Source of the DNA: Candidatus Micrarchaeota archaeon
Lineage (GTDB): Archaea; Micrarchaeota; Micrarchaeia; Burarchaeales; JAKAKT01
Length of the DNA: 64,000 nt
Direction: 5' to 3'
NCBI GenBank assembly: GCA_041305385.1
Contig: JBFYLO010000011.1
Location: 8,577-72,576, forward strand
This document shows, one piece after another, positions 3,156-64,000 of the stretch. Below the pieces are notes generated by a model, which saw only the letters and a program-made list of their open reading frames with translations, searched no databases and was not told where the DNA came from. The position numbers were made by a program, and so were the translations under genes. Each line of letters opens with the position of its first letter. Position 1 is the first letter of the stretch.

Positions 3156-4475
3156 TTAGTTCCCAAGCTCCCCGTGAACTCTCACTAAGAATTCGTTCAG
3201 CTTCCCAGGCTCGAGCTTCCCGCCAGCAGCGATGTTGTGCCCTCCCCCCAAGCCAATCCCCTCAGTCGCGGCGTGCAAGAGCTTCGAGAGATTAACTCCC
3301 TCCTTAATGAGCTTCTGCGTGGCCCTGCCTGAAATCTTTATGCTTCCTTCATCGTAAAATGCGATTGCAATTATCGGCTTGTCCCTGCTTATAACCGAAT
3401 ACAGCATCCCGGCTACGACCCCGATAATCCCGTCCTCAATTACTCCCCGTCCATCCAAAAAGTAGAACTTTCCATAGTCCTCAACAGCATTCCGCCCATA
3501 TTCAATGCCGTCCCTCAGGGCTTTCCTGTGCTTCAGCAGAAGGGCGCTCGCTTCCTTGTAGGCTCCCTCCTCGCCAAGGCAAACCCCTACCCCGACCTCG
3601 GGCTTCCCGTGCCTCCCGCAGGCATTAATCAAAGTGGAGAATTCCTTCGCATCCGAGAGCTCGGTTCCAGCCGGCCTTCTAGGGAGCCCATAAACCTCCC
3701 CAATCAGTTCGCTGGCACTGTGGCCCTTCCCTACAGAATAAAGGTGCTTCACAAGCCCGCTCACAAATGTTTTTTTCTCCTCCCTGCTCAGTTCCCCGTA
3801 TTTCCTCCAGTTTTCCCCTTGCTTGGGCTCAATCCCGATGTCAGCGAGAAATGTTCCGGCTTTCTCCTCGCTCCCGGTTATCCCAGGCAAGTAGGGTTCG
3901 GTGCAGTAGGCAAGAAAAGAAACTAGCGGCCTGCTCACCCTTCCGAAGAGCCTCAAGTCCTGCTCGCAAGTTATTTCACCAGCCTCAACTCCCTGCTCGA
4001 GCACTTTCCTGTTCCAGCCAATGAACGGGTCCTGCATGTCCCCAACTGAGCCAACGATTGCGAGGTCCGCAAGGGAAGGCTCGCTGAAAACCAGGTAAGC
4101 GGTGCTCGAAGCAGACAGCTCCTTCCCGCCGTCAATTCCGAAAATGAAGGGGTTCACCTGGAGCACCTTACTATCATTGGCCTGGTGGTGGTCTATTATC
4201 AGCACTTCCGAATCAGGCAGGAGCTCCCCAATCCTCTCCCCCATCGCCCCGCCAAAATCAACGAAAACAATTTCGCGCTCACCCCTCAGCCCCTTCACAA
4301 TCCCCTCATCGAGGCTCCTGAAAGTTCTATTCTGAGGGTCCTTCCCCATCCCCATGAGTCCTTTCTTCACAAGCGAGCCAGAGCAAACCCCATCGCAGTC
4401 GTAGTGGTTGACAATGAGAGGATTCTTCATTCTCGCAAGAAACTCTCGCCCCTCTTTGCACCTGTCCTCGAACAT
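3156..4475 (-). CDS. DHH-family phosphoesterase (archaeal RecJ/GAN-like nuclease)
   Basis: Contains HYDCDGVCS (DHH motif I), VDFGG and IIDHHQ (DHH motifs), and a GGGH-containing DHHA1-like C-terminus. TATA TTTAAATATTT lies on the minus strand at 4495-4506. Confidence 0.7.
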   Translation of the reverse strand: MFEDRCKEGREFLARMKNPLIVNHYDCDGVCSGSLVKKGLMGMGKDPQNRTFRSLDEGIVKGLRGEREIVFVDFGGAMGERIGELLPDSEVLIIDHHQANDSKVLQVNPFIFGIDGGKELSASSTAYLVFSEPSLADLAIVGSVGDMQDPFIGWNRKVLEQGVEAGEITCEQDLRLFGRVSRPLVSFLAYCTEPYLPGITGSEEKAGTFLADIGIEPKQGENWRKYGELSREEKKTFVSGLVKHLYSVGKGHSASELIGEVYGLPRRPAGTELSDAKEFSTLINACGRHGKPEVGVGVCLGEEGAYKEASALLLKHRKALRDGIEYGRNAVEDYGKFYFLDGRGVIEDGIIGVVAGMLYSVISRDKPIIAIAFYDEGSIKISGRATQKLIKEGVNLSKLLHAATEGIGLGGGHNIAAGGKLEPGKLNEFLVRVHGELGN

Positions 4476-4513
4476 ACATTAACTTCGCCAAAGAAAATAT
4501 TTAAACCGGTCAG

Positions 4514-4622
4514 GGCAGCAGGTGCCGCGGCGCTTGCAGTCTCGCCCTCGGCCGTCTGCAAGCGGCCGCCCCCGAGGGCTGGCCGAGCCATCCGGATGGC
4601 TCGCCGCAATTGGCACTGCTGC
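4514..4622. repeat. GC-rich triple-hairpin intergenic element, copy A (terminal inverted repeats GGCAGCAGGTGCC / GGCACTGCTGCC)
   Basis: Hairpins: CGCTTGCAG..CTGCAAGCG; GCCCCCGAGGGC; GAGCCATCCGGATGGCTC (perfect palindrome). It lies in the divergent intergenic region between the recJ-like gene and the small membrane gene. Homologous copies sit at 10501-10600, 11711-11806, 56250-56354 and 61649-61763. Confidence 0.55.
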
Positions 4623-4628
4623 CTAAGG

Positions 4629-4637
4629 TATTTAAAT
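4629..4637 (+). promoter_or_regulatory. Archaeal TATA box (TATTTAAAT) about 32 bp upstream of the ATG at 4669
   Basis: The same palindromic TATTTAAAT box recurs at 1211-1219 and 9335-9343, and as a near variant at 4495-4506. The ATG is preceded by GGTGGT (SD-like). Confidence 0.4.
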
Positions 4638-10500: not shown

Positions 10501-10600
10501 GGCAGCAGCGCACCGCGGCAGGCGGCATCCGGATGCCGCCTGGTCGGCTCCCGGGAGCCGACCTGCCTGCCCGGGCAGGCAGCCGCATGTTGGGGGCGCT
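10501..10600. repeat. GC-rich triple-hairpin intergenic element, copy B
   Basis: TIR GGCAGCAGCGC...GCGCTGCTGC. Hairpins are GGCGGCATCCGGATGCCGCC, GGTCGGCTCCCGGGAGCCGACC and GCCTGCCCGGGCAGGC. It sits in the divergent intergenic region between the pilin and tdh-like genes. Confidence 0.55.
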
Positions 10601-10758
10601 GCTGCTGGGCATTTCTACAGGGCCCCTACTCTCGTTCATCTGCTCCAACCTCCAAAACAAATCCTGAAATCGGGGATTTGCAGGTTCAGCAACTAGGAAA
10701 TCTTATAAACATCAACGCACAATTGCAGTTCTGATTTCATTATCACGGAGATGTTGAA

Positions 10759-11700: not shown

Positions 11701-11710
11701 AAAACTAGAG

Positions 11711-11806
11711 CACGCGGTTCCTGCCGTCTCACTCAAAGCCGTCGGCAGGAAGTCTGCCCCCAGGCAGACCGAGTGCCCCGAGGCACTCGCCGCAATCGGC
11801 GCTGGG
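11711..11806. repeat. GC-rich triple-hairpin intergenic element, copy F
   Basis: Hairpins CCTGCCG..CGGCAGG, GTCTGCCCCCAGGCAGAC and GAGTGCCCCGAGGCACTC, followed by a GCCGCAATCGGCGC tail. The same tail is found in copies A and C. It sits in the convergent intergenic region between the tdh-like and ferritin genes. Confidence 0.5.
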
Positions 11807-12284: not shown

Positions 12285-12310
12285 TTTTTTCTTAATCTCC
12301 ACACAATCAC

Positions 12311-12874
12311 CTATATTTTTCCAACCAGGTCCAGGCCCGGCTTCAGCGTCTTCGCCCCAGGAGCCCAGTTCATAGGGCACACCTGCCCATTGTGGTCTCT
12401 CACGAACTTCGCAGCCTGCAGCTTCCTTATGAGCTCGGCGCTGCTCCTCCCGATGCTGTTGTCATGGACCTCATAAGCCTTCAGAATCCCGTCAGGGTCG
12501 ATGAGGAACGTTCCCCTAAGTGCAACACCCTCCCCCTCAATGTAGACCCCGTAGTCCCTTGAGATTTTCCCGGTCTTGTCCGAGAGCATCGGGTACTTGA
12601 TTTTCCTTATCATGTCAGATTGGTCGTGCCAGGCCTTGTGCACGTATTCGCTGTCAGTGCTTACCCCGACCACCTCGGCTCCAAGACTCTTGAACTTCTC
12701 GTATTGGTCTGCAAGCTCCCCGAGCTCAGTCGGGCAGACAAAGGTGAAGTCCCCAGGGTAGAAAAACAGCACAACCCATTCTCCCTTGTAATCTGACAGG
12801 TGAACGGTCGTCAATTCATCCCCATGATACGCCTTGCCGCTGAAGTCAGGGGCAGGTGCATTTATAGTTGGCAT
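12311..12874 (-). CDS. Peroxiredoxin (2-Cys Prx, AhpC/TSA family)
   Basis: Peroxidatic Cys in FTFVCPTE, a resolving Cys near the C-terminus (VCPMNW), and a conserved Prx fold sequence. Confidence 0.9.
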   Translation of the reverse strand: MPTINAPAPDFSGKAYHGDELTTVHLSDYKGEWVVLFFYPGDFTFVCPTELGELADQYEKFKSLGAEVVGVSTDSEYVHKAWHDQSDMIRKIKYPMLSDKTGKISRDYGVYIEGEGVALRGTFLIDPDGILKAYEVHDNSIGRSSAELIRKLQAAKFVRDHNGQVCPMNWAPGAKTLKPGLDLVGKI

Positions 12875-28110: not shown

Positions 28111-29613
28111 ATGGTTCCCTCTAGTTCAAACGGACATGAAAACGGCAAGGAAAAGGAAGAAAAAATTGAGAAGGAGGAGAAGAAAGAAGAGAAGAGGGAC
28201 GAGAAGCCGGAGAAGAAAGAGGAGGAAAAAAAGGAAGAGAAGCGAGAGGAAAAACGGGAAGAGGAGAAGAAGAGTGAGAAGAAGGACGAAAAACAAGAGA
28301 AGAAAGAGGAGAAGAAAAACGGGGAGAAGCCCGAGAAAATCAAATTCTTGTTCGTTTCATTCGAGGGATTGATAGGCGACCTCGCGTGGCAGGTGAAGAG
28401 GGAGGGCCACGAAGTCAAATACTACATACACTCCAAGACCGAAAAGGACGTCGCAGACGGTTTCGTGGACAAGTGTGATGACTGGAAGGCGCTCAAGGAT
28501 TGGGCAGACGTGTTCGTGTTCGATGACGTGGGGTTCGGGAAAATTGCAGATGACTTGAGAAAAGAGGGGAAGGCAGTCGTGGGCGGGAGCGAATACGGGG
28601 ACATGCTCGAGGATGACAGGGAGTTCGGCCAGGACGAGCTCAAGAAGCTTGGCGTCAATGTTCTCCCCCACTGGGACTTCAAGGACTTCGATGCTGCCAT
28701 AGAGTTCGTGCAGAAGAATCCTGGCAGGTATGTGATAAAGCCAAACGGGAAGGCGCAGAACGAGAAGGAGCTCTCCTACATCGGGCAGGAGGAGGACGGC
28801 AACGACATCATCAACGTGCTTGCCCACTACAAGAAGAGCTGGTCCAAGAAGCTCAACGACTTTCAGCTTCAGAAGTTCGCCCAGGGGGTCGAGGTCGCTG
28901 TCGGGGCCTTTTTCAACGGGAAGGATTTCGTTTATCCGATAAACGTGAATTTCGAGTACAAAAAGATGTTCCCAGGAGACATAGGGCCGAACACCGGGGA
29001 GATGGGAACGCTGATGTTCTGGTCCCCACCAACCACGCTGTTCAATGAGACGCTTCTCAAGATGAAGGATGCGCTCGCGCAGGCAGGATACGTTGGCTAC
29101 ATCGACCTCAATTGCATCGCCAATGCGAAGGGAATTTATCCGCTAGAGTTCACCTCGAGGTTCGGCTACCCGACAATCAGCATACAGATGGAAGGGGTGA
29201 CGAGCAACTGGGGGGAGTTCCTGAGGGCTCTTGCCAAAGGCGAGACTACTGAGTTCAGGACCAAGAAGGGATTCCAGGTGGGCGTGGTGATTGCAGTTCC
29301 CCCATTCCCGTTCACAGACCTGTCTTCCTTCAGGAAATATTCCGAGGATGCAACCATCATTTTCAAGAAGCCCATGACTGATGGCGTGCACATCGGGGAT
29401 GTGAAGCTGGTTGAGGATGACTGGCGGCTTGCGGGCCAATCTGGCTATGCAGTGGTAGTGACGGGCTCGGGGCTGACAGTCGACGATTCACAAAAGCAGG
29501 CCTACAAGCGAATTGAGAACATCCTGATTCCGAACATGTTCTACAGGACCGACATCGGGGAGCGCTGGTCCAGGGACAGCGACATGCTGCACACCTGGGG
29601 CTACTTGTACTGA
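28111..29613 (+). CDS. Phosphoribosylamine--glycine ligase (PurD)-like ATP-grasp enzyme with a K/E-rich N-terminal extension
   Basis: PurD signatures: KFLFVSFEGLIGDLAWQ (cf. KVLVIGSGGREHALAWK), GDIGPNTGEMGT (cf. GDKDTGPNTGGMGA), EFTSRFGYPT (cf. EFNCRFGDPE), and the C-terminus AYKRIENI..YRTDIGER. No other pur genes are nearby. The start is uncertain: either the ATG at 28111 or an internal TTG around 28345. Confidence 0.6.
   Translation: MVPSSSNGHENGKEKEEKIEKEEKKEEKRDEKPEKKEEEKKEEKREEKREEEKKSEKKDEKQEKKEEKKNGEKPEKIKFLFVSFEGLIGDLAWQVKREGHEVKYYIHSKTEKDVADGFVDKCDDWKALKDWADVFVFDDVGFGKIADDLRKEGKAVVGGSEYGDMLEDDREFGQDELKKLGVNVLPHWDFKDFDAAIEFVQKNPGRYVIKPNGKAQNEKELSYIGQEEDGNDIINVLAHYKKSWSKKLNDFQLQKFAQGVEVAVGAFFNGKDFVYPINVNFEYKKMFPGDIGPNTGEMGTLMFWSPPTTLFNETLLKMKDALAQAGYVGYIDLNCIANAKGIYPLEFTSRFGYPTISIQMEGVTSNWGEFLRALAKGETTEFRTKKGFQVGVVIAVPPFPFTDLSSFRKYSEDATIIFKKPMTDGVHIGDVKLVEDDWRLAGQSGYAVVVTGSGLTVDDSQKQAYKRIENILIPNMFYRTDIGERWSRDSDMLHTWGYLY
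28136..28343 (+). repeat. Roughly 200-nt strand-asymmetric polypurine (GA-rich) low-complexity tract encoding a K/E-rich peptide
   Basis: More than 90% A/G on the plus strand (gaggagaagaaagaagagaag...). It encodes EKKEEKREEKREEEKKSEKKDEKQEKKEEKK at the 5' end of the purD-like ORF. Confidence 0.6.
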
Positions 29614-56249: not shown

Positions 56250-56354
56250 GCAGCTGCATGGCGCGGTGCGAAGCTCCCGGGAGCTTCGCAGTCGGCATTC
56301 GAATGCCGACCGAGCCATCCGAATGGCTCGCCGCCAATTGCCGATGCAGCTGCC
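56250..56354. repeat. GC-rich triple-hairpin intergenic element, copy C (TIR GCAGCTGCAT...ATGCAGCTGC)
   Basis: Hairpins GCGAAGCTCCCGGGAGCTTCGC, AGTCGGCATTCGAATGCCGAC and GAGCCATCCGAATGGCTC, then a GCCGCCAATTGCCG tail. It lies in-frame inside the ORF-track extension of the 56245 ORF. Confidence 0.55.
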
Positions 56355-58812: not shown

Positions 58813-61269
58813 TTGAACTGGCACTACTCGCTTTTCGTAATACTCTTCTTGGCCTCGTCTCCTTTTGCTACGCTGATAGCCGAACAATCTACAGACAAAG
58901 AGATTTCTGTGCCGACTTCGATTTCTGAAAACAAAATTGGGATGGCAAACCCGGCAGCAGTTTACTGCATTGAGCTTGGCTATGGTTACAAAATCACCAA
59001 AGGGCCATTGGGCGAATATGGGACTTGCATTTTCCCGGACAAGACCGAGTGCGAAGAGTGGCAGTTTCTTGCTGGTAAATGCGGGCAGAGCCACTCCTAT
59101 TGCGCGAAGCAAGGCTATGGGATAAAAACGATGAGCGATGGGAAGGACCCGTTCTCCCCGGAATATGCGGTTTGCACTTCCGTTGATAAAAAAATTGAAA
59201 TTGATTCTGTTTCAAAACTATTCGACCTGCAAACAAAATCACTGAAAGGGTCGATTACTATTTCGGTCAAAGAAGCCGTAGCTGCCCCCACATCGTCTAC
59301 ACAAGCCCAGGAAACTCCATCAGTTCTTCCCCCATCTTTTGACTGGAGAGATTACAATGGTCAGAATTGGATGACTCCAGTTAGAGACCAAGGCAGTTGT
59401 GGTTCATGCTGGGTTTTTTCGACAGTTGGAGTGGTTGAGGCTCTTTTTAACTTACTTGACAATACTCCAGGACGAGATTTTGACCTCTCAGAACAGACCA
59501 TAGTTTCTTGCAACGGAGTGGGTAATGGTTGTCTTGGAGGAGACCCAAGATTTGCGCTCTCATACATTAAAAATACCGGAATCCCGGATGAGATGTGTTT
59601 TCCCTATGTTGCTCAGTACGCGTCATGCTCAAATAGATGTCCAGACTGGATGGAAAGATCAGTAACCATAACGAGTCATGGGGAAATGTGGAACGTCTCC
59701 GGTATGGAACTTGTTCCTCTGGATATCGAAACAGTAAAAAGATATCTAATCGAGAAGGGACCACTTGAAACTGTTATGAGCACCCGTGGCAGTTTCATAA
59801 ATTTTAACGGAACTTTTGTTTATGTTTGTAACGGTGATCGAAATCTCACGCATTCTGTAATCATTACGGGTTATAATGATAACTTTACCCTCCCTCAAAA
59901 CCCATACACGAACAGCGGAGGTTACTGGATTATTAAAAACAGTTGGGGTTTAGTGGGTGATGGGTATATCTACATAAAATATGGGGAATGCGGCGTGCCT
60001 ACGATGATAACCTACGCTAAAAAATGCCTGGAGGCAGGAGCGCAATGCAATAATAATCTTCAGTGCTGCTCTCGCGATTGTAATGGCGGGACGTGTTCTC
60101 AGCGATGTGGTGATGATGATTGTGATGGAAATGAAACCTGTGAAACTTGTAAGCAAGATTGTGGTCGTTGCTCTTGTGGAGATGGGGAGTGTACTCATAC
60201 TGGCATTACGAGCCAATTTGAAAGATGCGATAATTGTCCAGAAGACTGTGGCCAGTGCACAGGGTGCGGAGACGGTTTTTGCGTCCCCCCTGAAAACTGC
60301 TTAACGTGTCCAGGAGATTGCATTAGTTGTTGTGGTGACGGACAGTGTTTAGGAAACGAAACAACAGTTACATGTCCAAATGATTGCGGAAGCCTTTGTG
60401 GCGATGGAGCATGTAATGGGTACGAAGACACCCGTGAATGCCCAGAAGACTGCGGTTCATTGTGCGGCGATTGGACATGCAATGGAAATGAGACCTGTTT
60501 ATCCTGCCCGACAGACTGTTTCTACTGTTTCGCCGACCCAGCGGTCCAAAACATCAGTTGGACGCCGGATTCACCAACTAACTGTAGCGGATACGGCAAC
60601 GTTGAGGTGAAGAACATAGGGACTTTCCCGAGCCCACGGGGGGTTTACTCAATTTATGCCGATAACATACTCATCGGTCAAGGGTTTACTAGTGAACTCC
60701 CGCCAGGGCGGTCCAACTACATCGGCTTCCTTTACAATCCCATATCAACGTCCTCACCTTACCGGATGATTGAAGCATCGATAAATGTTGTCAACGATTC
60801 TAACCCTGAAAACAACCGGCTCGTCAAGCAGATAACTCTCAACTGCTACTGCGGTAACGGGAGATGCGATTTGAATGAGAATACAGCAACCTGTCCTTCT
60901 GACTGCCCACTCCAATTCTGCGGAGATGGAACCTGCAATTCTGGAGAGACGTGCTCTTCATGTCCGAGTGACTGCGGAACGTGTATATGTACCCCAGCCT
61001 ATTTCTGCAAAGACATCAACACGCTGGCGTACAGAAATTTCAAGTGCTACGTTAGCTATTCGAGCTGCAATGGGGGAATCTGCTGCAATGGCAAATGCCA
61101 AAAGGCACTCCCCGGAGCTACGTGCATCGATGTCAATACGGTGGTGGCAGCACAAAACATTGCGCAGGTGCAGGGCCCTGAGCTTCCGACTGTTCTCGCA
61201 GTTCTGAGCATGGTTGTCTTGGTGGGGGTAGTGCTCTATGCGTTCATAAAAATAGAAACGAGGTTCTGA
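58813..61269 (+). CDS. Membrane-anchored secreted papain-like (C1) cysteine protease with N-terminal DUF333 domain and a C-terminal array of Cys-rich repeats
   Basis: TTG start with signal peptide. DUF333-like NPAAVYCIELGYGYKI..GTCIFPDKTECEEWQF. C1 peptidase motifs are QGSCGSCWVFSTVG (catalytic Cys) plus downstream His/Asn regions. There are at least eight repeats of C[GS]DGxCxxxExxxxCPxDCGxxC. The C-terminus has a TM anchor LPTVLAVLSMVVLVGVVLYAFI. The island is AT-rich. Confidence 0.75.
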   Translation: MNWHYSLFVILFLASSPFATLIAEQSTDKEISVPTSISENKIGMANPAAVYCIELGYGYKITKGPLGEYGTCIFPDKTECEEWQFLAGKCGQSHSYCAKQGYGIKTMSDGKDPFSPEYAVCTSVDKKIEIDSVSKLFDLQTKSLKGSITISVKEAVAAPTSSTQAQETPSVLPPSFDWRDYNGQNWMTPVRDQGSCGSCWVFSTVGVVEALFNLLDNTPGRDFDLSEQTIVSCNGVGNGCLGGDPRFALSYIKNTGIPDEMCFPYVAQYASCSNRCPDWMERSVTITSHGEMWNVSGMELVPLDIETVKRYLIEKGPLETVMSTRGSFINFNGTFVYVCNGDRNLTHSVIITGYNDNFTLPQNPYTNSGGYWIIKNSWGLVGDGYIYIKYGECGVPTMITYAKKCLEAGAQCNNNLQCCSRDCNGGTCSQRCGDDDCDGNETCETCKQDCGRCSCGDGECTHTGITSQFERCDNCPEDCGQCTGCGDGFCVPPENCLTCPGDCISCCGDGQCLGNETTVTCPNDCGSLCGDGACNGYEDTRECPEDCGSLCGDWTCNGNETCLSCPTDCFYCFADPAVQNISWTPDSPTNCSGYGNVEVKNIGTFPSPRGVYSIYADNILIGQGFTSELPPGRSNYIGFLYNPISTSSPYRMIEASINVVNDSNPENNRLVKQITLNCYCGNGRCDLNENTATCPSDCPLQFCGDGTCNSGETCSSCPSDCGTCICTPAYFCKDINTLAYRNFKCYVSYSSCNGGICCNGKCQKALPGATCIDVNTVVAAQNIAQVQGPELPTVLAVLSMVVLVGVVLYAFIKIETRF

Positions 61270-61315: not shown

Positions 61316-61642
61316 TCATTCCACTTCGATTTCCACAACCTTCACTTCATTGGCATTGGTCTCAATATCAGGCGAGCCGCACTTCGGGCAGCGAATGGGC
61401 GAGAACTGCGTCGAGGTCTCCTTCTTGCACTTGTGGCACTTGAGATAAGGTTTCATCATCTTGACTTCGAGTTTTGCATTTCCCGCAGGAGTGCTCTCGG
61501 AAAGCATGAAGAACAATTCCCTGAACTCGGCCACATCGGTTATGTTCGAGCCCACCTCAATGCGGATTCTCTTTACTTTCTTCCCTTTTGCCCCCTCGAG
61601 GACAGCGGAAAGCGCGGCTTTCACATAAGGCATCTCTTGCAT
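61316..61642 (-). CDS. hypA: Hydrogenase nickel-insertion / maturation protein HypA
   Basis: 108 aa with an MQEMPYVKAALSAVLE N-terminus (HypA MHE.s.a.sI...) and a C-terminal zinc site CHKC...CPKCGS. Confidence 0.6.
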   Translation of the reverse strand: MQEMPYVKAALSAVLEGAKGKKVKRIRIEVGSNITDVAEFRELFFMLSESTPAGNAKLEVKMMKPYLKCHKCKKETSTQFSPIRCPKCGSPDIETNANEVKVVEIEVE

Positions 61643-61648
61643 GATTCA

Positions 61649-61763
61649 CACAACTTCCGCAGCGCCACGGCGCGGTGAGAAACGCCCCGAGCGTTTCTCA
61701 GTCGGCCTCCGAAGGCCGACCAAGCGCCTCGCAGCGCTTGCCGCTTATTGCCGGTGGCGCTGC
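61649..61763. repeat. GC-rich triple-hairpin intergenic element, copy D (TIR GCAGCGCCAC...GTGGCGCTGC)
   Basis: Hairpins GAGAAACGCCCCGAGCGTTTCTC, AGTCGGCCTCCGAAGGCCGAC and CAAGCGCCTCGCAGCGCTTG, then a GCCGCTTATTGCCG tail. It lies between the NuoI-like gene stop and the hypA start. Confidence 0.55.
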
Positions 61764-61768
61764 TTTTT

Positions 61769-62434
61769 TCACTTGTTTCTTTTCACCCAGGGCGGGGCAT
61801 CCTTGAATTCCAAATCTTCGGCGGGCTTCCCGTCCCCCTCGATTATACCGCCCCCAGTTTTTTCTTCACTCTGGGCTTCCCCGCCTCCCCCCTCCAGCTC
61901 CTTCCTGGCCTTTTCCACTAGGGTTTCCTCTTTCTCTTGCTTGGGCTCAGGGGGCTTCTCCTCTGGCTTGGGCTGGGCGGGCTTGAGCCTGCATTCCGGG
62001 CATCTGGCGAACAGCTTCGGGTCCATCCTCTTCGTTTCAATCATGTAATTCTTCTGGACAAGGGCCATGGTGTCCTTGCCGCATACCTCGCACTTGGCCA
62101 TCTCGTAAATTTTCTTGGCATAGAGCTCCTTGTCCTCGCGCGCCTCCTCGTAGCGGTCGGTGAATATGACTGCGTTCACGGGGCAGACGTCGGCGCACCT
62201 TCCGCAGGATATGCAATGGGGGAGCCAGTAGACCAGGGATTTCCTGTCGAACTTTATGCACTTGGCAGGGCAGGCTGCTGCGCAAGCCCCGCAGGCTATG
62301 CATGCGTCTGAAATCTCAATCATGCCCCTGAACCTCGCCGGGGGCAGCACCTTCCTGGCCGGGTAGGGGACAGTGCTTGGCATGCGGAAGAGGTTCTTCA
62401 GCACGTCGTCAATCATCCTTGGAATCAGTTTCAT
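61769..62434 (-). CDS. NuoI/EchF/HycF-like 2x[4Fe-4S] ferredoxin subunit of a membrane-bound hydrogenase, with extra Cys motif and K/E/P-rich tail
   Basis: CIACGACAAACP and CISCGRCADVCP, an additional CEVCGK...CPEC, and a C-terminal PKPEEKPPEPKQEKEE low-complexity region. Confidence 0.75.
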   Translation of the reverse strand: MKLIPRMIDDVLKNLFRMPSTVPYPARKVLPPARFRGMIEISDACIACGACAAACPAKCIKFDRKSLVYWLPHCISCGRCADVCPVNAVIFTDRYEEAREDKELYAKKIYEMAKCEVCGKDTMALVQKNYMIETKRMDPKLFARCPECRLKPAQPKPEEKPPEPKQEKEETLVEKARKELEGGGGEAQSEEKTGGGIIEGDGKPAEDLEFKDAPPWVKRNK

Positions 62435-63414
62435 CCAACAACACCGTTATAGACCAATACAATTAACATCTGGATTATCGCGAACAGGAGCAGGCCCTTC
62501 AGGTAGAAGCCGGAGGCCTGGTGGACCTTGAACCTCCCGGAGACTGCTTCCACAATCGCCATGAGAATCGCTGCGAAGAGCGCCACAGCCATCTGGAACA
62601 CGAGCATCATGAGGACCCCGAGGGCTGAAACTGAGAGGAAGGGGACCGCTTTCTCGATGCCCTGGAACGCCGGCATGAGGAAGGCTCCGGGCTCGGGAAT
62701 GGGCATGAACAGGGTTGCGAAAAGCATGGGGAAGACATAGAATTTGAGGGCTTCAGTAATCTTGTAGGCTGCGAGGAGCCTTCCCGAATATTCGGTGTAA
62801 ATGCCCTCCACTATCTCGGTCTCAGCCTCGGTCACGTGGAACGGCGCCCTTCCCAGCTCCCCGAGCATGCAGGCGAAATAGACCGCTGCACCAAGGAGGA
62901 GCAGTGCGTTCGAAGCCGCGTCCATGGCCCCAAGGGAGAAGCTCTTCGCCAGGAAGGCCACTGAGAGCAGGACCAATGTCATGGGGAGCTCAAACGAGAT
63001 GACCATCGTTATCTCCCTGGAGGCGCCGATTGCCGAGAAGGGGGAGCCCGAGGCAGAGGCCCCAAGTATTATCCCGATGCTCGAGAGTATAATCACATAA
63101 AGGAGCACGAACAGGTCGCCGCCGAATCCCCAGAGCGAGACCTTTGCTATGGGCACGAGCAGCACCGCAGTTGAAATCGCAGCCACTGAGACCAGCGGGG
63201 CGAGTATGAACAGGGGCCTGACCGCACCCTTCGGAATCAGCGTCTCCTTCGAGAGCAGTTTCAATATGTCATAGAGGGGCTGGAGTATGGGCGGGCCTAT
63301 CCTGTTCTGCAGCCTCGCGAAAAGCTTCCTCTCGACTCCTTGAAGTATTATCCCGAATAGGAAAGCGAACAGCAGGAGCACAGCCGAGCCCAGCAAATAT
63401 TGGACAGCATCCAT
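62431..63414 (-). CDS. NuoH/EchB/HycD-like integral membrane subunit of energy-converting hydrogenase
   Basis: RKLFARLQNRIGPPILQPLYDILKL and eight TM helices. It has 4-bp overlaps with both neighbours. Confidence 0.8.
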   Translation of the reverse strand: MDAVQYLLGSAVLLLFAFLFGIILQGVERKLFARLQNRIGPPILQPLYDILKLLSKETLIPKGAVRPLFILAPLVSVAAISTAVLLVPIAKVSLWGFGGDLFVLLYVIILSSIGIILGASASGSPFSAIGASREITMVISFELPMTLVLLSVAFLAKSFSLGAMDAASNALLLLGAAVYFACMLGELGRAPFHVTEAETEIVEGIYTEYSGRLLAAYKITEALKFYVFPMLFATLFMPIPEPGAFLMPAFQGIEKAVPFLSVSALGVLMMLVFQMAVALFAAILMAIVEAVSGRFKVHQASGFYLKGLLLFAIIQMLIVLVYNGVVG

Positions 63415-63415
63415 C

Positions 63416-64000
63416 CTATCTCCTCATCTTCCTCAGTTCCCTGAATGAAACATACCTGCCCGTCCCCCTTTCATCGATGAAAGAAACCCGGTCCATGCAC
63501 CCGATGCATGGGTCGATGCTTGCTATGATTATCGGGATGTCCGCGATATGCTCGTCCTTGAACATTGCGGGAATCGAGAGCACGTTCGCAAGGGTCGGCG
63601 CCCTTACCTTGTAGCGGGCTGGCCTCGGCCCGCCCTCGGTCCTCATGTAGTGGATGTCCTCGCCCCTTGGTGCCTCGGTCCTGCTCACCGCCTCGCCCTT
63701 CGGCATCTTCCAGTTGTCGTTCCTGAAATCCCCGGCAGGCATGTTCCTGAGCGCCTGCTCGATTATCCTGATGGACTCCTTAAGCTCGAGAATCCTGACC
63801 ACTGTCCTCCCGAAAACATCCCCGCTGTCCCAGGTTATCACGTCGAAATCGAGCTCACCATAGGCGAAATACGGGTCGTCCCTCCTGACATCGATATCGG
63901 CCCCCGAAGCCCTGGCAGTCGGCCCGACAGCCCCGAGCTTGTAAGCCTCGTCCTTGGTGAGCACCCCGACCCCTGCAACCCTTCTCTCGATTATCGGGTC
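63416..64000 (-). CDS. [NiFe] hydrogenase large subunit, group 4 (EchE/MbhL/HycE-like), C-terminal part. The 5' end lies beyond the window.
   Basis: The frame is open to the window edge (...DPIIERRVAGVGVLTKDEAYKLGAVGPTARASG). It is NuoD-like but retains the C-terminal Ni-binding DPCIGCMDR (DPCxxC), and hypA lies downstream. Confidence 0.75.
   Translation of the reverse strand, partial: DPIIERRVAGVGVLTKDEAYKLGAVGPTARASGADIDVRRDDPYFAYGELDFDVITWDSGDVFGRTVVRILELKESIRIIEQALRNMPAGDFRNDNWKMPKGEAVSRTEAPRGEDIHYMRTEGGPRPARYKVRAPTLANVLSIPAMFKDEHIADIPIIIASIDPCIGCMDRVSFIDERGTGRYVSFRELRKMRR

Follow-up and report, generated by a model that had tools for sequence, protein, structure and literature searches.

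The 3′ end of a probable Mrp-Mbh-type group 4 [NiFe]-hydrogenase operon in a Micrarchaeota genome, with a structured repeat between mbhN and hypA

A 64,000-nucleotide stretch of a contig (JBFYLO010000011.1) from a Candidatus Micrarchaeota archaeon, hereafter the window, ends in four co-directional genes on the minus strand (61316–64000): the C-terminal half of a hydrogenase-like large subunit, a NuoH-like membrane subunit, a NuoI-like subunit and the maturation gene hypA (Table 1). All features named in a preliminary description of this DNA were found in their places and on this strand by direct reading of the sequence and with Pfam, including a repeat (copy D) between the stop codon of the NuoI-like gene and hypA, although the latter turned out, at 105 nt, to be a longer and more structured element than a simple direct repeat. 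The large-subunit and NuoH-like genes are 1 nt apart, the NuoH-like and NuoI-like genes overlap by 4 nt (ATGA), and the three genes are translationally coupled, while the spacer between the NuoI-like gene (mbhN) and hypA is 126 nt long and holds copy D. Motif scans of the 64-kb window for hypB, hypC, hypD, hypE, hypF and hycI gave no match, and the approximately 46 open reading frames (ORFs) of the window annotated with Pfam or NCBIfam were ordinary housekeeping genes with no other hydrogenase or hyp gene among them.

Table 1. Coordinates of the hydrogenase-region features and of the repeat copies within the window
Feature	Position	Strand	Remarks
Large-subunit fragment (MbhL-like, C-terminal half)	63416..64000	-	194 aa, open at window end; PF00346 Complex1_49kDa, 6e-56
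DPCIGCMDR of large subunit	63488-63514	-	read directly from the sequence
C-terminal extension of large subunit, 23 aa	63419-63487	-	aligns with the HycE C-terminal peptide
MbhM/NuoH-like membrane subunit, 327 aa	62431..63414	-	PF00146, 3.5e-63; best solved homologue 6cfw_M
NuoI/MbhN/HycF-like 2x[4Fe-4S] subunit, 221 aa	61769..62434	-	Fer4 families; HycF-type C-terminal extension, acidic tail
Cys quartet C115/C118/C145/C148 of NuoI-like subunit	61991..62092	-	predicted single-metal site (HycF alignment)
Acidic/Lys/Pro low-complexity tail of NuoI-like subunit	61772..61990	-	ends FKDAPPWVKR; PPWVKR at 61778-61795
hypA, 108 aa	61316..61642	-	PF01155, 5.6e-17, 62.2 bits (cut-off 28.9); TIGR00100
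Repeat copy A	4515..4622	+	between dnaJ and DHH-family gene; first hairpin longer; 55.1 bits, outside model
Repeat copy E	10502..10605	+	between divergent genes; 104.5 bits
Repeat copy B	11705..11805	+	between convergent epimerase and ferritin genes; closing stem eroded; 37.7 bits, outside model
Repeat copy C	56250..56353	+	between GT2 glycosyltransferase and thioredoxin-like membrane protein genes; 116 bits
Repeat copy D	61659..61763	+	mbhN-hypA spacer; four-way junction; 111 bits

At its C-terminus the large-subunit fragment reads ...IASIDPCIGCMDR, then VSFIDERGTGRYVSFRELRKMRR. Its DPCIGCMDR aligns with DPCYSCTDR of Escherichia coli HycE and has the form of the C-terminal nickel-ligand motif, DPCxxCxx(R/H). 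The C-terminal peptide of HycE is cleaved off by an endopeptidase after nickel insertion, and the extension of the window protein is aligned with this cleavable sequence. The presence of the C-terminal nickel ligands agrees with the preliminary assignment to the energy-converting [NiFe] hydrogenases of the group 4 type and not to complex I.

Relatives were collected by scanning the large-subunit fragment against one genome per GTDB species. Five loci (L001–L005), all from Candidatus Micrarchaeota, matched at 68–82% identity; the next-best matches, at 50% identity or less, came from Atribacterota, Thermoplasmatota and Asgard archaea. The window and the relatives are also syntenic beyond hypA, sharing a family 2 glycosyltransferase (GT2) gene, a glutamate-dehydrogenase-like gene and a geranylgeranyl (digeranylgeranylglycerophospholipid) reductase gene, the last of which identifies the window genome as archaeal. 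The N-terminal nickel cysteines, on which the preliminary assignment also turned, are present in the large subunits of close relatives: the orthologue in L004 (77% identity across the half that can be compared) contains EHICGICSYTH aligned to the CGIC nickel ligands of MbhL and HycE, and the CGIC pair is kept in relatives 77–81% identical to the window protein. Among solved structures, the full-length L004 subunit matched MbhL best (6cfw_L, 1.5e-89, 304 bits), followed by HycE (1.8e-87, 297 bits) and MbsL (2.6e-53, 185 bits), and the NuoH-like subunit was nearer to MbhM (6cfw_M, 4.7e-35, 125 bits) than to HycD (4.9e-23, 85 bits). It is extremely improbable that the complex is a non-hydrogenase, either an Mbx/MBS-like sulfane reductase or a complex-I/Fpo-like oxidoreductase: although the C-terminal half on its own gave its top PDB score with Thermus thermophilus Nqo4 and the NCBIfam names obtained for the large subunit were NuoD and FpoD (all far below their cut-offs), the window protein has DPCIGC, whose cysteines complex-I NuoD has lost in the alignment, the relatives retain CGIC and score far better with MbhL than with MbsL, and hypA is adjacent, as are hypD and hypF in the relatives.

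The operon upstream of the large subunit was deduced for the window genome from the relatives, because these genes would lie beyond the window end. In L001 and L004 eleven genes, assigned with Pfam, precede the large-subunit gene, the whole order being MnhE, MrpF, MnhG, MbhD, MbhE, MnhB, NuoK-like, NuoL-like, a small protein in the MbhI position, NuoB-like, NuoC-like, large subunit, MbhM, MbhN and hypA. All eight Mrp-antiporter-like subunits were identified by Pfam in L001; the NuoL-like antiporter subunit has 503–514 aa in the two loci, and the protein in the MbhI position had no Pfam match in either. In L001 the gene of the NuoB-like small subunit (PF01058, 4.5e-30) precedes that of the large subunit by two positions, and L004 has the same layout; NuoC-like is a separate gene (124–142 aa) in the relatives and their large subunit has 390 aa. 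The expectation that the small-subunit, NuoC-like and NuoL-like genes stand farther upstream was thereby borne out in close relatives, just upstream of the large subunit. The genes hypF and hypD adjoin the operon, just upstream, in L002 and L004, and no hycB-like, fdhF-like, additional Fe-S or molybdopterin gene was found inside or adjoining the operon of the relatives.

This 14-gene layout, with its MnhE-, MrpF-, MnhG- and MnhB-type subunits, is unlike the six-gene echABCDEF, from which the order large subunit-NuoH-NuoI also differs, and corresponds to the mbhA-N layout of Pyrococcus furiosus. The gene order had been regarded as unusual in the preliminary description, but it is exactly the mbhL-mbhM-mbhN order of the Mbh family: the large-subunit gene is followed by an MbhM and then an MbhN homologue in 69 of the 80 related loci, and the order is L-M-N in the window and J-K-L-M-N in L001 and L004. 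The argument for novelty from gene order consequently fails. Judged by the pairwise scores and the operon layout of the relatives, the module is classed as a probable Mrp-Mbh-type group 4 hydrogenase, resembling P. furiosus MBH and having the architecture of HydDB group 4d.

The region thus very probably forms the 3′-terminal part of a polycistronic [NiFe]-hydrogenase operon, of group 4 and the Mrp-Mbh type, from a member of the Micrarchaeota (DPANN), with hypA behind it. Several points weigh against this assignment. On the C-terminal half alone, Nqo4 of the T. thermophilus complex I slightly outscores MbhL and HycE. What is said here of the upstream genes, from the Mrp-like ones to that of the small subunit, and of the N-terminal part of the large subunit comes from the relatives. 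A substitution in HypA (His2Gln, see below) could mean impaired maturation in the window genome. Finally, the membrane-bound group 4 [NiFe] hydrogenase already reported in the same phylum, from 'Ca. Fermentimicrarchaeum limneticum' (Kadnikov et al., 2020, cited through PMC8561730), was labelled group 4e (Ech type), unlike the 14-gene Mrp-Mbh type of the operons seen in the relatives.

Among the closest described counterparts is the membrane-bound hydrogenase (MBH) of P. furiosus (mbhA-N; PDB 6CFW), the type example of the Mrp-linked group 4 enzymes, with which the locus shares the L-M-N order, the full 14-gene layout including the Mrp-like small subunits (in the relatives) and both nickel-cysteine pairs (the N-terminal one from the relatives). 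The differences from it are that hypA directly follows the operon, that the host is a member of the DPANN with about 52% GC and not a hyperthermophile of the Thermococcales, and that the NuoI-like subunit of the window has a four-cysteine extension of the HycF type and, behind it, an acidic tail terminating in PPWVKR.

The NuoI-like subunit has two CxxCxxCxxxCP motifs, an extra C115-x2-C118...C145-x2-C148 quartet and a PKPEEKPPEPKQEKEE tail. Both the extra cysteines and the tail had been pointed out in the preliminary description; the cysteine motif, however, is not a new feature, since it aligns with the known quartet of HycF and HyfH (PMC9474812). A profile of the clade (ten members) matched HycF best (7z0s_F, 2.2e-22, residues 14–154), pairing CevC with CrvC and CaeC with CpeC of HycF, and the NCBIfam models of HycF and HyfH aligned from residue 12 through 151–153 with scores as high as that of NuoI, whereas P. 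furiosus MbhN aligned only to residues 8–102. The quartet is invariant in all 13 Micrarchaeota members of the clade and absent from all 65 non-Micrarchaeota loci. In the cryo-EM structure of the E. coli formate hydrogenlyase (FHL), Cys117/120/155/158 of HycF hold one metal ion, tentatively iron, at the HycB/FdhF interface (PMC9474812). Searched alone against the PDB, the segment with the quartet (70 aa) gave chance matches only; it takes the whole protein, the profile of the clade or the models of NCBIfam to reveal the homology to HycF. By these comparisons a HycF-type quartet is unusual in an Mbh-type operon. An AlphaFold2 model of the subunit, computed from a 10-sequence alignment, had a mean pLDDT (per-residue confidence score) of 48.5 and was not used for fold comparison.

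The resemblance to FHL raises the possibility that the module is of the formate-hydrogenlyase/Hyf type (group 4a), with electrons delivered by a HycB-like protein docked on the HycF-type extension. The cysteine quartet is aligned residue for residue with that of E. coli HycF (PDB 7Z0S) and HyfH, HycF is the best match of the clade profile with the quartet included, the HyfH/HycF models of NCBIfam are on a par with NuoI, and the large subunit has a HycE-like cleavable extension and, in L004, scores with HycE only 7 bits below MbhL. On the other hand, NuoC is a separate gene in the relatives and not fused as in HycE, their operon has the MnhE, MrpF, MnhG, MbhD, MbhE and MnhB subunits typical of Mbh and an Mrp-like membrane module, it has no HycB or FdhF partner in or beside it, and the NuoH-like subunit is nearer to MbhM than to HycD. 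An enzyme of the FHL type is accordingly very unlikely here, and the assignment to the Mrp-Mbh type is preferred. HycF also differs from the NuoI-like subunit in having neither the acidic tail nor the PPWVKR motif.

The tail that follows the quartet varies freely in length (from 0 to about 215 aa) and sequence among the relatives and is rich in Glu, Lys and Pro, but its last residues read [FL]K[DE][AG]PPWV[KR]R in 12 of the 14 homologues. A C-terminal PPW[VI] was found in no other ORF of the window and nowhere in 2.2 million six-frame residues from unrelated loci. The acidic, presumably disordered tail with its PPWVKR end may be a tethered short linear motif docking onto the complex or onto a partner. 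The positions recorded for the PPWV[KR] ending in relatives are L001 (5215–5649), L002 (11514–12614) and L004 (11478–12458); in L001 one MbhE-like subunit ends in PPWVK as well.

Homology with the MBH of P. furiosus and the FHL of E. coli suggests the following mechanism. Reduced ferredoxin would be oxidised at the NuoI-like subunit, whose two [4Fe-4S] clusters would hand the electrons on, by way of the small-subunit cluster, to the large subunit, and protons would be reduced to H2 at its [NiFe] site. The MbhM-like subunit, which joins the peripheral arm and the membrane arm, would pass energy to the Mrp-antiporter-like membrane module, which would build an ion gradient. For maturation, HypA would act with HypB to insert nickel into the large-subunit precursor, after which an endopeptidase of the HycI type would remove the 23-residue extension behind DPCIGCMDR.

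The hypA product has an intact zinc site (C69/C72/C85/C88, CxxC-x12-CxxC) and is 76–83% identical to its counterparts in L004 and L001. Its N-terminus, however, reads MQE (ATG CAA GAG, 61634–61642, minus strand; CAA at 61637–61639), whereas HypA of all six Micrarchaeota relatives starts with MHE. His2 of the MHE motif is a nickel ligand, and the H2A variant of HypA from Helicobacter pylori shows neither nickel binding nor hydrogenase activity (PMC7055735). The MQE start has two possible explanations: an erroneous consensus at a single third-codon position, or a chaperone that is genuinely weakened in the window genome. That hypA is decaying or non-functional, leaving the hydrogenase unmatured or dependent on another nickel route, appears improbable: the substitution is confined to the window genome and coincides with an insertion upstream of the gene, and the H. 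pylori variant is inactive, but the rest of HypA, including the zinc site, is conserved, the single third-position change (CAA versus CAC/CAT) could have arisen in assembly or consensus calling, and the structural genes are undamaged.

Most relatives have only a short spacer between mbhN and hypA (L214, 3 nt; L004, 5 nt; L212 and L213, 8 nt each; L001, 31 nt); that of L005 extends over about 220 nt, which are AT-rich and free of the element. The gene pair separated by copy C in the window (GT2 and thioredoxin-like) overlaps or abuts in L002, L212 and L214, while in the window the two genes are 180 nt apart. Since the orthologous spacers of the relatives are free of the element, copy D is regarded as a lineage-specific insertion and not as a conserved regulatory device. 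It would have been inserted into a formerly 3–31-nt mbhN-hypA spacer and be transcribed within the operon mRNA.

The preliminary description had suggested that the repeat terminates transcription or insulates hypA. Archaeal termination depends on oligo-T on the non-template strand. On the coding (minus) strand, no run of four or more T was present from the mbhN stop to the hypA ATG (the longest was 3), and a T6 run (61764–61769) follows copy D on the opposite, plus strand. The suggestion is therefore not supported: because oligo-T is missing from the sense strand, copy D is not a typical archaeal terminator for mbh-to-hypA transcription and is most likely transcribed within the operon mRNA. 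After such read-through, a four-way junction with a stability of about -75 kcal/mol would stand between the two cistrons and end 16 nt ahead of the start codon of hypA. No TATA-like box was seen in the spacer of the window. In L001 the corresponding spacer (12290–12320) has TTATAAAT some 26 nt before the start codon of hypA, a position that would be compatible with a separate hypA promoter and a leaderless mRNA.

A function of copy D that is selected at this site, as a terminator or insulator or in RNA stability or processing, uncoupling hypA from the structural genes, is possible but unlikely. Bacterial repetitive extragenic palindromic (REP) elements and bacterial interspersed mosaic elements (BIME) stabilise upstream mRNA, which speaks for such a function, as do the great stability of copy D (-71.3 kcal/mol on the plus and -74.6 kcal/mol on the minus strand, z about -7 to -8) and the short distance of copies D and C from the next ATG (16 nt from that of hypA and 14 nt from that of the downstream gene, respectively). 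A bacterial terminator/sigma-70 scan, which is not suited to archaeal promoters and was used only to flag a hairpin followed by T6 on the plus strand, called copy D with this run terminator-like; in this orientation it could halt antisense transcription into the mbh operon. Against a selected function stand the missing oligo-T between mbhN and hypA on the coding strand, the lack of the element in the 3–31-nt spacers of four relatives, in the longer one of L005 and anywhere else in a relative's locus, and the distribution of the five copies over all intergenic contexts (co-directional in both senses, convergent and divergent), which fits opportunistic insertion. Copy D is most probably a selfish insertion similar to REP elements or miniature inverted-repeat transposable elements (MITEs), and any effect on hypA expression or mRNA stability would be secondary at most.

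The element is a nested palindrome about 105 nt long. The ends of its closing stem, GCAGC...GCTGC, are conserved; there is also an inner stem, GCGG/CCGC, and three hairpins of 7–10 bp with loops of 4–6 nt (CCGA, CCGG or TCGA) directly abut one another. A bulge of 5–6 nt lies on the 3′ side. All five copies fold as a four-way junction (z from -3.6 to -7.9 on the plus and from -2.1 to -7.0 on the minus strand). Trained on copies C, D and E, with A and B left out, a covariance model recovered A and B and nothing else in the window, also with filters off; for these two the plus orientation was ahead by 23 and 12 bits, respectively. Copy E had been reported as an inverted copy by the repeat finder; this was rejected, as the covariance model and the asymmetric 3′ bulge both place it in the plus orientation. 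All five copies therefore share one orientation, for which chance would give 1 in 16, so that an orientation bias is suggestive only; the GC skew has a single sign across the window.

Of the 190 cells given by the 40 modelled pairs in the five copies, 186 hold a Watson-Crick pair, one a G.U and three a mismatch, and 25 pairs show compensatory changes on both sides, the copies being about 62–81% identical. The near absence of G.U together with the strong covariation suggests that the structure must form on both strands, which would point to a DNA palindrome, or an RNA read in either sense, rather than an RNA gene of one strand.

Outside the window the element was not recovered. A scan for triple abutting perfect hairpins found copies C, D and E (A and B fall short of triples) and no such arrangement in 2.25 Mb of unrelated DNA, and the covariance model found no copy in 80 kb of Micrarchaeota relatives. 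Across the window Rfam 15 gave nothing at gathering thresholds, with chance-level scores of at most 17 bits on copies D and C. A strict 25-base pattern retrieved 36 stretches from the JGI metagenomes, none of which fitted the covariance model, and a looser one 95 stretches from IMG/VR, with no triple-hairpin architecture among the matches listed (80 of 95). Having support from neither the covariance model nor the triple-hairpin scan, the pattern matches outside the window were rejected as chance.

Like REP/BIME elements and MITEs, the repeat is short, non-coding and confined to intergenic DNA. It occurs in multiple copies with inverted repeats at their ends, and orthologous sites differ in whether they carry it, as is typical of MITE- or REP-like mobile repeats. 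It differs from them in that the copies are strongly diverged and yet keep all four helices with almost exclusively Watson-Crick pairs, in their single orientation, and in that no target-site duplication was seen: inspection of the flanks by eye revealed no shared or duplicated sequence, and no transposase was among the annotated genes (about 46 ORFs, a part of those in the window).

Two more far-reaching readings are tentative and have a low probability: one, that the element belongs to an undescribed class of DPANN intergenic elements; the other, that the four cysteines of the NuoI-like subunit form, together with the tether and PPWVKR, a new docking module. The element may then form a four-way junction on both strands and split tightly coupled operon genes such as mbhN and hypA, and its fixed chromosomal orientation may be of the kind expected from mobilisation coupled to replication through single-stranded DNA; the docking module may recruit an electron donor or another partner to the Mbh-type hydrogenase.

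Most DPANN genomes are without an ion-gradient-forming electron-transfer complex (PMC6349945), and the occurrence in a Micrarchaeota lineage of a full Mrp-Mbh hydrogenase, along with maturation genes, thus bears on the energy self-sufficiency of small archaea. Such an enzyme has already been reported in the phylum (PMC8561730), and the noteworthy features of the present locus are the combination of a HycF-type site, an acidic tether and PPWVKR in an Mbh-type complex, the repeat splitting two tightly coupled gene pairs, and the His2Gln substitution in HypA. By combining a HycF-type metal site with an Mbh-type operon, the locus connects two branches of group 4 and offers a natural variant for probing the role of the site. 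The palindromic repeat shows clearly how a small structured element can be inserted between translationally coupled genes; it could be used to mark the lineage, and further copies, if they can be collected, may show that it represents a new family of archaeal repeats.

Several neighbouring genes deserve mention. In L214 a gene of a 58-aa 2x[4Fe-4S] ferredoxin (4460–4636) lies about 3.2 kb downstream of hypA and adjoins the geranylgeranyl reductase gene; its product is a candidate electron donor for the hydrogenase. In the window hypA is convergent with the gene of an 818-aa papain-family (C1) peptidase (58813–61269, plus strand), secreted or membrane-anchored, which has an N-terminal DUF333 and long Cys-rich repeats of the CGDG(x)C type and is not found at this position in L001, L212 and L214. 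A ParE-family toxin gene (PF05016; 58042–58514, minus strand) overlaps an upstream DUF7557 gene, with which it probably forms a toxin-antitoxin pair, and this stretch, between hypA and the syntenic GT2 gene, differs in content from the relatives. Farther away, a GAA/GAG-rich imperfect tandem repeat (28138–28344, plus strand) encodes a low-complexity, Glu/Lys-rich N-terminal region of a GARS-like ATP-grasp protein (28111–29613).

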